Below are positions 28,997-30,620 of a DNA stretch of 64,000 nucleotides, piece after piece. Under the pieces are notes generated by a model, which saw nothing but the letters and a program-made list of their open reading frames with translations, was not told where the DNA came from and made no database searches. Where the stretch lies: the sequence record PV593737.1, one strand, 5' to 3'. A program made the position numbers and the translations under genes. Positions within the stretch are counted from its first letter, which is position 1; each line of letters begins with the position of its first letter. The stretch comes from Enterobacter phage vB_ECC_MY742.

Positions 28997-29194
28997 TCAA
29001 CACTGATAAGATGATGATTGCCAACCGTTGATAATCATGGAGTTACCATCAACTTGAATAGCTTCACCAAGGTCTAACCCAGAACGATCATCAAAATAAA
29101 TATGGACCATTTCGCGCTCATCAGAGGCAACTTGGAACAAGTTTTCAAGGGCGGCTTTAGCCGTACGTACTGTACAATCTAATTCACGAGACAT
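28997..29194 (-). CDS. W-SSS-C family paralog E (start taken at MSRELDC)
   Basis: C-terminus INGWQSSSYQC-stop. Confidence 0.5.
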   Translation of the reverse strand: MSRELDCTVRTAKAALENLFQVASDEREMVHIYFDDRSGLDLGEAIQVDGNSMIINGWQSSSYQC

Positions 29195-29483
29195 TTTGAT
29201 TCCTTCTGCATTGTTTGATAAACTTATCAAGTTCGATAGATTTAAGAGTTTGGTCTGTTATGGTATTTACATATCGCCAAGTGTCTGCTGTAGGGTCCCA
29301 GACCATGTCAGGGAAGTCCCAAGGCGATTCACGGAAATCGTTATATTCGTCTACTATTCGAATCAATTCGGAATTAGCATAAACGGATTCTCTAAAATAA
29401 GCTAAAGACACATGGACATAACTTCCGTTTTCAAAGTCTATTTCAAGATAACAATTGACTATTCTTAGTTTGTAAAATTCCAT
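29184..29483 (-). CDS. hypothetical protein
   Basis: 99 aa; PeSL and a GGAGG RBS immediately upstream. Confidence 0.55.
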   Translation of the reverse strand: MEFYKLRIVNCYLEIDFENGSYVHVSLAYFRESVYANSELIRIVDEYNDFRESPWDFPDMVWDPTADTWRYVNTITDQTLKSIELDKFIKQCRRNQNVS

Positions 29484-29540
29484 AACACCTCCTAAACAAG
29501 TACGGGTATCTTATCACTAAGACACCCGTTTGTAAACTGC
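29484..29540 (-). promoter_or_regulatory. PeSL-type early promoter
   Basis: GTTTACA followed by the ACGGGTGTC...GATACCCGT stem and a GGAGG RBS. Confidence 0.55.
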
Positions 29541-29774
29541 TTAGCACTGGCTCATAGAAGAACTATACCAGAAGCCTTGGTCGTGTGGTAGATAATGGTC
29601 TTCACGGACCCATCTGTAGTCTTCCCATTCATCAGAAGATGCAGGAATGTATTGTTCGTTGCCGGCCCAGAAGTGCTCACCTGTGGCTTCAGCAATTTCT
29701 TCGCCTTTAGAAATCAGGGCAGAAATACCTTTAGCGATATCGTCAACGGTGTTTACGTCAAATTCAAATTTCAT
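29541..29774 (-). CDS. W-SSS-C family paralog D (start at MKFEFDV)
   Basis: TAAGGAAATAAAAATG RBS; C-terminus QGFWYSSSMSQC-stop. Confidence 0.55.
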   Translation of the reverse strand: MKFEFDVNTVDDIAKGISALISKGEEIAEATGEHFWAGNEQYIPASSDEWEDYRWVREDHYLPHDQGFWYSSSMSQC

Positions 29775-29784
29775 TTTTATTTCC

Positions 29785-30015
29785 TTAGCAAGAAGAAGGT
29801 TGCCAGATAGAGCCATCGGCTTCAACGTTAAATTCACGACCAACTTCTTCACCGTAGCAAGAAGAGTTGTTCCAGTCGTTAAAGCGCATGCTACCATCAG
29901 AGGTATCAAATTCGAAACCGAAACAATCAGCTTCAGCCAGTTCACTTACTTTGTTGAACAGGATAGCCAGTTCTTTAGCGGCTTGTTCGAGTTCAATGTT
30001 ACCAGATACAGACAT
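29785..30015 (-). CDS. W-SSS-C family paralog C
   Basis: 76 aa; C-terminus GSIWQPSSC-stop. Confidence 0.55.
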   Translation of the reverse strand: MSVSGNIELEQAAKELAILFNKVSELAEADCFGFEFDTSDGSMRFNDWNNSSCYGEEVGREFNVEADGSIWQPSSC

Positions 30016-30024
30016 AATGTTTCC

Positions 30025-30309
30025 TTAGCATTCCATAGAAGATGATACCCAACCACCTGATTCGAGGCTGGTGTAATATGAGTGTTGGTTGACGGTGGCC
30101 CAATTCGGATTGCCTTGTTCGGTATAATGCTCAAGTTCCTTTTTCAAGAATCCAGGAGAATAATACGTCCCACCCATACCATAAGCAGGGGCAATTTCAA
30201 AAGTCAGGTCGTATTTGTCAGCGACTTTCTTTGCTTGATTAATAGCTTCAGAAATGGCCGCTTCAGCAGCAGCCATAGCAAGTTCAGGTTTATGTTTAGA
30301 CATTAGCAC
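30025..30309 (-). CDS. W-SSS-C family paralog B
   Basis: 94 aa; C-terminus GGWVSSSMEC-stop. Confidence 0.55.
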   Translation of the reverse strand: MLMSKHKPELAMAAAEAAISEAINQAKKVADKYDLTFEIAPAYGMGGTYYSPGFLKKELEHYTEQGNPNWATVNQHSYYTSLESGGWVSSSMEC

Positions 30310-30620
30310 ATCTCACTCGAAGAAATCCAGACACCTTCTGTAAGATTACCGTTTTCGTCTAGCTCATAGTCCATAGTACGACAAGCATATTCAATATAGT
30401 TATCTTCAGCATTAGTGCCTTTAGGATAATAGGTTTCACCATTACCATAATCGCCGCGGCTCATAGAAATACCGTATTGGTCCATCAGTTGTTCTGCACG
30501 TGCTTCATCTACCGGCTCTAGAAGAGCTTCAATTGCTTTACGAGCTGAAGTTGCATCGGTTACCAGAGGGATACGAGTTTCAATAATTTCCATTGCTTCG
30601 GTTTTCTTTTTAGGGTTCAT
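30303..30620 (-). CDS. W-SSS-C family paralog A
   Basis: 105 aa acidic; C-terminus GVWISSSEMC-stop; ATGA overlap with the upstream gene. Confidence 0.55.
   Translation of the reverse strand: MNPKKKTEAMEIIETRIPLVTDATSARKAIEALLEPVDEARAEQLMDQYGISMSRGDYGNGETYYPKGTNAEDNYIEYACRTMDYELDENGNLTEGVWISSSEMC

Follow-up and report, generated by a model that had tools for sequence, protein, structure and literature searches.

Cys-tailed paralogs and their family

The window analysed here is the whole of a 64,000-nucleotide (nt) stretch from Enterobacter phage vB_ECC_MY742 (PV593737.1). On its minus strand lie five small genes, here called paralogs A to E, whose products of 65-105 amino acids (aa) share a carboxy-terminal tail made of a Trp, a Ser run and a final Cys (W-x-[S/P]-S-S-(x0-3)-Cys-stop; Table 1). 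Approximately 300 nt past E, on the same strand, is the gene of an apparent nucleotidyltransferase with DUF7277 and DUF7275 domains, and the tail genes together with this adjacent gene form a conserved module. The five genes and their tails had been noticed in an original prediction made from the letters of the window, and this part of it is confirmed. The tails end at true stop codons, and miscalled frames or stops are ruled out; the window has 398 stop-to-stop frames of 50 aa or more, 13 of them with a terminal Cys, and the five of these with the motif, far more than chance would give, are paralogs A-E. Furthermore, W-x-S-S-S occurs four times in all six frames of the window, each time inside one of these tails. 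Paralog lengths assume the most plausible ATG starts.

All five proteins are acidic, as predicted, with isoelectric points (pI) of 4.05-5.2 and net charges of -4 to -11.5. The only invariant columns in their alignment are M1, W, S, S and C, and the N-terminus is not conserved. The prediction held that the bodies had diverged almost completely, which is true of C and E, for which no similarity to the other paralogs is detectable by hhalign after removal of the last 10 residues, but not of A and B, which remain homologous under the same treatment (hhalign 93%, E 3e-7); the A-D and B-D pairs are marginal (E ~1e-3). The A-type body carries YGNGETYYPKGT, and the corresponding proteins of Kanagawavirus-like, Klebsiella (Marfavirus) and Pectobacterium PM2 phages are 58-99% identical to A. 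Paralog B contains the element AYGMGGTYY, which is typical of the family and present in most of its distant members too, and has a homolog in RB69ORF137c, while RB69ORF136c is of the same type as E. Paralog C has an additional internal W-N-N-S-S-C unit, and C-type copies likewise adjoin the enzyme gene in Phapecoctavirus and Aeromonas phages.

At the DNA level, the tails of the paralogs and their orthologs draw their Ser codons from both the TCN and AGY boxes, their Cys codons are TGC or TGT, and the stops that follow vary among TAA, TGA and TAG. This variation in synonymous tail codons indicates that selection acts on the peptide and not on the DNA. Conservation of the tail as a DNA element, whether a shared ribosome-binding site or a duplication unit, is ruled out by the same synonymous variation, including the TCN/AGY switches at Ser. 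Within gene B, the 3' half (~30010-30186) contains a 177-bp patch that eleven E. coli LF82 phages (170 kb) share at 96% identity. The B homolog of these phages has 89% protein identity over residues 29-92, compared with ~57% in other Mosigvirus-like phages, and this pattern points to recent within-gene recombination across phage genera.

The five genes are paralogs in a large phage-restricted family of small acidic alpha/beta proteins. A word-indexed search returned 105 homologs, all from phages or metagenomes, of which 102 have a final Cys, and an exhaustive profile search of 1.84 billion representatives (E <= 1e-3) found at least 504 clusters at 50% identity, nearly all of 65-143 aa, with the match extending to the last residue. 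Among 248 sampled members, Cys is the last residue in 237 and is followed by one more residue in another 8. Trp and Cys are spaced by 7 in 212 of the 237 Cys-ending members; among these 212, Ser is found at position -4 in 211 and at -3 in 207, and S, A or P occupies position -5, apart from a single T. The carboxy terminus of the family accordingly reads G-W-x-[S/A/P]-S-[S/T]-x-x-Cys with Cys last, a form to which all five window proteins comply. In addition, the terminal Cys is the sole Cys in 94 of 143 representatives, which have a median pI of 4.5.

It had been expected that the tail alone would be conserved across such a family. The tail is by far the most conserved element, but most members also have an N-terminal helix, an F-x-F strand and an (P)AYGMGGTYY or YGNGETYYPKGT element. 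The two profiles that the paralogs match, phrog_899 and phrog_4882, are listed in PHROG with function unknown. The view that no described family has such a terminus stands: Pfam (scanned with the five paralogs and 40 members), NCBIfam and PADLOC gave no match, no relative of the small proteins was found in the PDB, and a search of the full-text literature for DUF7275/DUF7277, the RB69 open reading frames (ORFs) and phage AbiEii/DUF1814 found no description of either the tail genes or the enzyme gene. The hosts are diverse, as members come from phages of Gammaproteobacteria and Betaproteobacteria and from contigs of metagenome-assembled genomes (MAGs) assigned to Saccharibacteria, Bacteriovoracales and Chitinophagales.

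Of 150 representatives, 9 have extra W-x-[S/N/D]-S-x-C units within acidic linkers, where shuffling predicts 0.08. Since these units recur inside linkers, the tail unit may be an autonomous short motif, as the sequences suggest. Copies with an altered tail are also seen. In RB69, ORF139c ends ...GDYGSGRTYYPKGEIVSQWYEK-stop and the overlapping ORF138c ends ...ITEGAWVSSPALC-stop (L040:1872-2181); the pair resembles a single A-type copy that a frameshift has divided, with a degenerate tail (SSP). The metagenomic protein P0102 (114 aa) has a C-type N-terminus, MSVSGNIELEQAAKELAVLFNKVSELA..., and a C-terminus that matches the end of ORF X (...QMCRGNQNVS), a gene of the window described below, and it appears to be a deletion or recombination fusion with loss of the Cys tail. 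In two Acinetobacter phages (L033:2030-2206, L048:800-991), a family-like copy that ends ...VWHNSNWSNSES/A, with no terminal Cys, has canonical Cys-tailed copies beside it and may be a paralog in which the tail has degenerated naturally.

The fold of protein B was predicted with AlphaFold2 (AF2) from a 40-sequence alignment. The model has a mean predicted local distance difference test score (pLDDT) of 93.7, with an average of ~70 over the last ten residues, and is built from a long helix (6-31), two shorter ones (50-62 and 70-73) and three strands (34-37, 45-48 and 83-87). The bodies had been described as mostly helical, which does not hold for B, since its predicted fold is alpha/beta. The AYGMGGTYY element maps to the beta1-beta2 hairpin loop and strand beta2, and the third strand is formed by G-G-W-V-S of the tail, after which S-S-M-E-C forms a terminal turn. 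In this model the Trp is probably a core residue, and the Ser run and Cys are predicted to be more exposed.

This raises the question of whether the tail is only structural or metal-binding, with the Trp in the core, the Ser residues as caps and the Cys binding a metal or forming an inter-subunit bond in a homo-oligomer, and with the enzyme acting in the same pathway without contact to the tail. Such a role would agree with the confident placement of G-G-W-V-S in the third strand of the core sheet, with an invariant Trp adjoining a Gly, a pattern typical of buried strands, and with the presence of a second conserved element, AYGMGGTYY, within the fold. It accounts less well for the exact Cys end and the fixed Trp-to-Cys spacing, for motif copies inside low-complexity acidic linkers outside the fold core, and for the retention of the tail in C and E despite bodies that have diverged past detection. 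The last 10 residues are also of lower confidence, and Cys261 of the enzyme covaries with the presence of tailed partners, as set out below. A tail of purely structural or metal-binding function is therefore considered quite unlikely.

The co-encoded nucleotidyltransferase

The association between tail genes and enzyme was examined from both sides. Starting from the small proteins, 24 IMG/VR loci were collected with a degenerate DNA pattern for YGMGGTYY, on contigs of 7-389 kb that include jumbo phages. Across the window and loci L001-L030, the enzyme gene is found on the same strand wherever the downstream DNA suffices, usually 0-0.8 kb past the nearest tail gene; in the seven loci without it (L012, L015, L017, L020, L022, L023, L028), the DNA ends 0-815 nt after the last tail gene. 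For P0099, the most distant homolog that could be placed on contigs, from a phage encoding PolB, RecA-like and DnaB-like genes, the tail gene is directly followed by a DUF7277/DUF7275 gene, and for P0104 the enzyme gene begins 13 nt downstream. Because the YGMGGTYY pattern biases the sample to B-type copies, loci were also sampled in reverse, from enzyme homologs in annotated phages and genome bins. All 14 long-form enzyme loci obtained in this way have 1-4 tail genes within ~2 kb on the same strand. They come from Phapecoctavirus ukendt and phiWec186, Otagovirus phiPsa381, Acinetobacter phages Berthold and AbTZA1, Stenotrophomonas phage Mendera, Ralstonia jumbo phage RsoM2USA, Aeromonas phage 44RR2 and RB69, with the remaining five on contigs binned in MAGs.

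The other flanking genes are entirely different between these phages, and the pairing is thus not leftover synteny. A set of one genome for each of 185,579 bacterial and archaeal species contains five enzyme loci only, all on MAG contigs, so the module is essentially phage-restricted. Furthermore, there is one enzyme gene per 1-5 partner genes, a ratio more in keeping with several substrates or adaptors per enzyme than with a 1:1 toxin-antitoxin pair.

The enzyme itself has more than 2,000 homologs and is found in 732 GenBank phage records. Several Acinetobacter phage records label the gene 'putative nucleotidyltransferase'; the remaining listed records call it hypothetical, except for one evident mis-annotation. 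Residues G6-S7, D25-x-D27 and E69, which constitute the signature of DNA polymerase beta-type (pol-beta) nucleotidyltransferases, are invariant among 35 homologs of 44-86% identity, and long-form enzymes in which the N-terminus is present keep these motifs, except that D/E or E/D/N exchanges occur now and then. In fold, the enzyme matches MenT1, ANT(2''), TglT and LnuA. The phage protein is thus apparently an active pol-beta nucleotidyltransferase of the MenT/AbiEii/ANT(2'') structural class. A Pfam scan (E <= 0.1) detected DUF7275 and DUF7277 only, with no DUF1814, and a sequence search of the PDB, profile included, gave no match.

For residues ~150-309, no structural or sequence relative was found. 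Among the same 35 homologs, this region contains invariant R153, Y160, H162, D181-H182-D183, H186 and E228-E229, and further invariant E236-R237, K259, C261 and T-S-G-W-F-R-E. The DHD and His residues of DUF7275 prompted comparison with HD phosphohydrolases, a reading that was rejected since no structural or sequence match supports it.

Short-form relatives of 251-263 aa, with DUF7275 and a truncated DUF7277, are encoded by KVP40 (KVP40.0037), Vibrio phage K470 (0176), Streptomyces phage Beuffert (gp203) and Gordonia phage Miskis (gp14). No Cys-tailed neighbours are present at these four loci. Instead, the short-form genes are accompanied by 1-3 copies of a second small-protein family with the end ...F-K-x-G-Y-Y-x-S-W-D...E-V-x-P-x-x-K-T..., a G/E-rich loop, no Pfam match and no terminal Cys, and a partner-swapped version of the module may exist. 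In an alignment guided by a hidden Markov model, Cys261 is present in 30 of 30 long-form enzymes, all of which have Cys-tailed neighbours, and is replaced by Ile in 4 of 4 short forms. Residues R153, Y160, H162, S266 and R270 split almost in the same way, with single exceptions, and K113, H116, K127, H182, D183, H186, E228, E229, E236 and R237 are largely common to both forms. The split at Cys261 is what would be predicted if a Cys261/TSGWFRE surface reads the Cys tail, and may be taken as a hint in that direction.

Over 2.4 kb, the region has 98.3-98.5% identity to Enterobacter phages Entb_45 and vB_EclM_CIP9, the latter classified in Kanagawavirus, Tevenvirinae. The block lies on the minus strand, with lysozyme and nudE genes on one side and a tRNA cluster on the other. 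Its homologous block in RB69 (ORF134c-139c) is found between e.2 and e.3, and the module is absent from this site in T4, where e.2 and e.3 abut. Relative to T4, it is an accessory module inserted between these two genes.

Within the block, the genes were originally described as consecutive, separated by gaps of 0-10 nt or overlapping, and co-expressed from one early transcript. The spacing holds from A to D, as A and B overlap by 1 nt (TAATG), B and C are 9 nt apart and C and D 10 nt, but D is separated from E by a 57-nt spacer and the unrelated ORF X, the 3' end of which overlaps E by 11 nt. ORF X is also annotated in CIP9 and PEi20. The D-X spacer contains a predicted hairpin, ACGGGTGTCTTAGTGATAAGATACCCGT (-24.1 kcal/mol, z -4.6; equally good folds in 0 of 200 shuffles), and a consensus scan found a T4-early-like promoter match, TTTACA-17-TAAGAT, that overlaps it. 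This element could be a terminator, a processing site or a promoter, and as predicted from sequence it divides the array into two units. With a second promoter-like site from the consensus scan ahead of the enzyme gene (28752-28724), a single early transcript is doubtful.

In PEi20, CIP9 and RB69, some gene is present at the position of the 76-aa Cys-rich ORF (by position, not homology), and at four distant loci (L003, L009, L026, L039) there is no gene between the last tail gene and the enzyme. Directly upstream of A is a minus-strand gene for a predicted membrane protein of 131 aa (30617-31012). The tRNA cluster (35233-37491, minus), which shares the strand of the module and lies ~5-7 kb upstream of it, contains eight genes (Met, His, Gln, Asn, Lys, Arg, Met, Leu). 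Its location is noteworthy because MenT proteins, the closest structural relatives of the enzyme, act on tRNA 3' ends.

Table 1. Coordinates of the module in the window, and of short-form enzyme loci in other phages.
Feature	Position	Strand	Matches and remarks
Paralog A, 105 aa, ...GVWISSSEMC-stop	30303-30620	minus	phrog_899 E 6e-18
Paralog B, 92 aa from ATG 30303, ...GGWVSSSMEC-stop	30025-30303	minus	phrog_899 E 5e-18
Paralog C, 76 aa, ...GSIWQPSSC-stop (short tail)	29785-30015	minus	phrog_899 E 2.5e-7
Paralog D, 77 aa from ATG 29774, ...GFWYSSSMSQC-stop	29541-29774	minus	phrog_899 E 1.7e-10
Predicted hairpin and promoter-like site, D-X spacer	29502-29536 (hairpin 29529-29502)	minus	RNA fold; consensus scan
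ORF X, 99 aa	29184-29483	minus	phrog_32323 E 2e-18; unrelated to the paralogs, without Cys tail
Paralog E, 65 aa from ATG 29194, ...NGWQSSSYQC-stop	28997-29194	minus	phrog_4882 E 2e-29
76-aa ORF with 6 Cys	28756-28986	minus	phrog_3723 E 6e-32; between E and the enzyme gene
Partner enzyme, 309 aa	27760-28689	minus	DUF7277 (E 8e-25) and DUF7275 (E 1e-78)
Loci of short-form enzymes and the second small-protein family	L036:3660-4352, L037:3600-4797, L038:2360-2656, L046:3482-3847		

A possible role for the tail

The idea that a conserved tag on diversified bodies is read by something fits the conservation of the tail and its internal repeats, and the co-encoded nucleotidyltransferase with its Cys261 is a candidate reader. 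The favoured interpretation, judged to be modestly probable, is that the tail is a shared handle by which the enzyme engages, and would probably nucleotidylylate, its partner proteins. A single enzyme would engage each paralog via the common tail: the Trp would anchor the last beta-strand of the small protein, and the part inserted into the enzyme would be the exposed Ser run with the terminal Cys and its free carboxylate. There, the partner Cys could pair with the Cys261/TSGWFRE region, perhaps via a shared metal or a transient disulfide, so that Cys and carboxylate would be docking determinants and a Ser hydroxyl of the tail the acceptor for transfer of a nucleoside monophosphate (NMP), a type of protein nucleotidylylation known from MntA-HepT. 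On this view, a single enzyme would modify a choice of cargoes or targets, namely the diversified acidic bodies, and the system might act in host takeover or counter-defence. The small proteins are favoured as substrates or acceptors because one enzyme serves up to five divergent partners, because the motif can repeat within one protein, because the structural relatives of the enzyme move NMPs onto hydroxyls, and because MntA is established to (poly)AMPylate HepT, the partner encoded with it (PMC7641770).

Several points weigh against this interpretation. The closest structural relatives of the enzyme have tRNA 3' ends or small molecules, and not proteins, as their substrates. Since G-G-W-V-S is a confidently predicted strand of the core sheet, conservation of the tail is partly structural, and the structure predictions are of monomers, not complexes. 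The contrast group for Cys261 consists of four short forms from perhaps two or three lineages, and long and short forms differ at many other residues too. Gene order is also not uniform: the tail genes lie upstream of the enzyme in 13 of the 14 reverse-sampled loci and downstream in Mendera, and in P0105 the enzyme is 2.8 kb downstream, on the same strand. Finally, a small acidic protein encoded upstream of a MenT-like enzyme is also the layout of the MenA1-MenT1 antitoxin-toxin pair (PMC10435456).

This last point leads to the main rival of the handle interpretation, in which the small proteins are antitoxin-like regulators and not substrates. They would inhibit or time a MenT-like, tRNA-modifying host-shutoff enzyme, the tail plugging or re-positioning its active site. 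MenA1, a protein of 68 aa encoded upstream of MenT1, blocks the active site of MenT1 and induces auto-phosphorylation of the Ser/Thr in its G-[ST] motif (PMC10435456, PMC11375011). The phage enzyme retains this motif as G6-S7, and its partners are small, acidic and mostly upstream. However, up to five divergent partners per enzyme are unlike 1:1 toxin-antitoxin pairs, the partners have no sequence similarity to the MenA or AbiEi families, and the context is that of lytic phages, with essentially no chromosomal copies in bacteria (the five loci in the species genomes all being on MAG-binned contigs). A strictly terminal Cys is also not known as a feature of antitoxins. Regulation of this kind is therefore considered fairly unlikely, and less probable than use of the tail as a handle.

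A more far-reaching version of tail modification would be a system of a type not described to date, in which the enzyme uses dedicated W-x-S-S-S-x-x-Cys-COOH tails as acceptor for either a Ser-linked nucleotide or oligonucleotide or a lanthionine-like thioether. In the thioether route, an O-nucleotidylylated Ser would serve as leaving group and the terminal Cys would close the ring, assisted by the His/Asp/Glu/Cys-rich DUF7275 domain. Either route would yield nucleotide-tagged or cyclised acidic effectors for host takeover or counter-defence. Such a system is regarded as unlikely.

It was also suggested originally that the tail could be read by other machinery, including a protease, an exporter, a degron pathway or lipidation, for none of which was evidence found in this analysis. 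A reader in the host or virion that is unrelated to the enzyme, acting on the tail as a C-terminal degron, an export or packaging signal, or a site of Cys lipidation or conjugation, has in its favour the general argument that variable bodies share a conserved terminal tag, and a sub-threshold match (E 0.044) of the membrane protein upstream of A to DHHC palmitoyltransferases. This match scores 14.3 bits against a Pfam cut-off of 28.7, no DHHC motif is visible by eye, and the membrane gene is absent from the flanks of the module in the distant loci whose annotation was examined; the palmitoyltransferase link was accordingly rejected as an artefact of hydrophobic composition. Nor do the small proteins have a common N-terminal capsid-targeting sequence. 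Because the family spans very different hosts while the phage-encoded enzyme travels with the tail, a host-specific reader is unlikely, and this alternative as a whole is very improbable.

The module is present in many phages, including laboratory workhorses and therapy candidates. Carriers include RB69, JS98, IME08, Phapecoctavirus, T4-like phages of Acinetobacter and Aeromonas, and Ralstonia and metagenomic jumbo phages, in which the small proteins carry the annotation 'hypothetical'. Accessory regions like the insertion between e.2 and e.3 often house host-range or counter-defence genes. The pairing turns an orphan motif into a testable idea, in which a single enzyme has several protein partners that bear the tag. 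Should the tail prove to be modified, phage biology would gain a new protein-nucleotide or Ser/Cys chemistry, and the tag and its enzyme might be a portable pair. Should the small proteins be inhibitors, MenT/AbiEii-type enzymes, which are known from bacterial toxin-antitoxin and abortive-infection systems, would have a new class of regulators.

Comparison with known systems

The MenAT and AbiE systems (MenA1-MenT1, MenA3-MenT3/TglT and AbiEi-AbiEii; DUF1814) resemble the phage module in having a small-protein gene upstream of a pol-beta nucleotidyltransferase with intact G-S, DxD and acidic third motifs, and in having a small acidic partner. Unlike these, the phage enzyme is a DUF7277/DUF7275 and not a DUF1814 protein and has a conserved C-terminal extension of ~160 aa with invariant His, Asp, Glu and Cys. 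Its partners are unrelated to MenA and AbiEi, are present in 1-5 copies and have an invariant terminal Cys tail; no sequence or fold relationship of the small proteins to MenA1 or COG5340/AbiEi was found. In addition, the phage module is found in lytic phage genomes and almost never in bacterial genomes.

In the type VII HEPN/MNT system (HepT-MntA), the HepT residue that accepts the nucleotide is a Tyr close to the active site, and no Ser/Cys tail at the C-terminus is involved. MntA, a minimal pol-beta nucleotidyltransferase, covalently (poly)AMPylates a side-chain hydroxyl of HepT, with which it is co-encoded (PMC7641770), and the chemistry proposed here for the Ser-rich tail is the same. The phage enzyme differs in being of the MenT/ANT(2'') type with a large extra domain. 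No HEPN match was found by Pfam in the five paralogs or the 40 family members, and B cannot be a HEPN RNase with the Rx4-6H motif because it contains no Arg.

The array had also been likened to the T4 internal proteins IPI-III, and the two do share a short conserved terminal peptide on diversified small proteins in the same genome region, with T4 ipII and ipIII a few kb from the syntenic site. The T4 capsid targeting sequence is N-terminal and is cut off by the prohead protease. The resemblance fails on this point, as the element shared by the phage paralogs is C-terminal, their N-termini differ with no common targeting sequence, and the linked gene encodes a nucleotidyltransferase and not a head protein. 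Gene sets for ribosomally synthesised and post-translationally modified peptides (RiPPs), such as lanthipeptides, are similar in that several divergent precursors sharing one motif are encoded beside a single enzyme gene. Furthermore, the tail Ser residues 3-5 positions before the Cys have the spacing typical of thioether rings, and the units are sometimes repeated. The phage proteins differ in being predicted folded domains of 65-105 aa and not leader-plus-core peptides, and no member of the LanB, LanM, LanKC or radical-SAM families is found among the ten proteins spanning 27760-31673.

In general kind, a pol-beta nucleotidyltransferase with a small co-encoded partner is already known from MenAT, AbiE and HEPN/MNT. 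What is new is the partner family, its invariant terminal Cys tail, the multiplicity of partners, the large extra domain of the enzyme and the lytic-phage context. The almost constant pairing of tail genes and enzyme gene suggests a new enzyme-plus-tagged-partner system in many well-studied phages.

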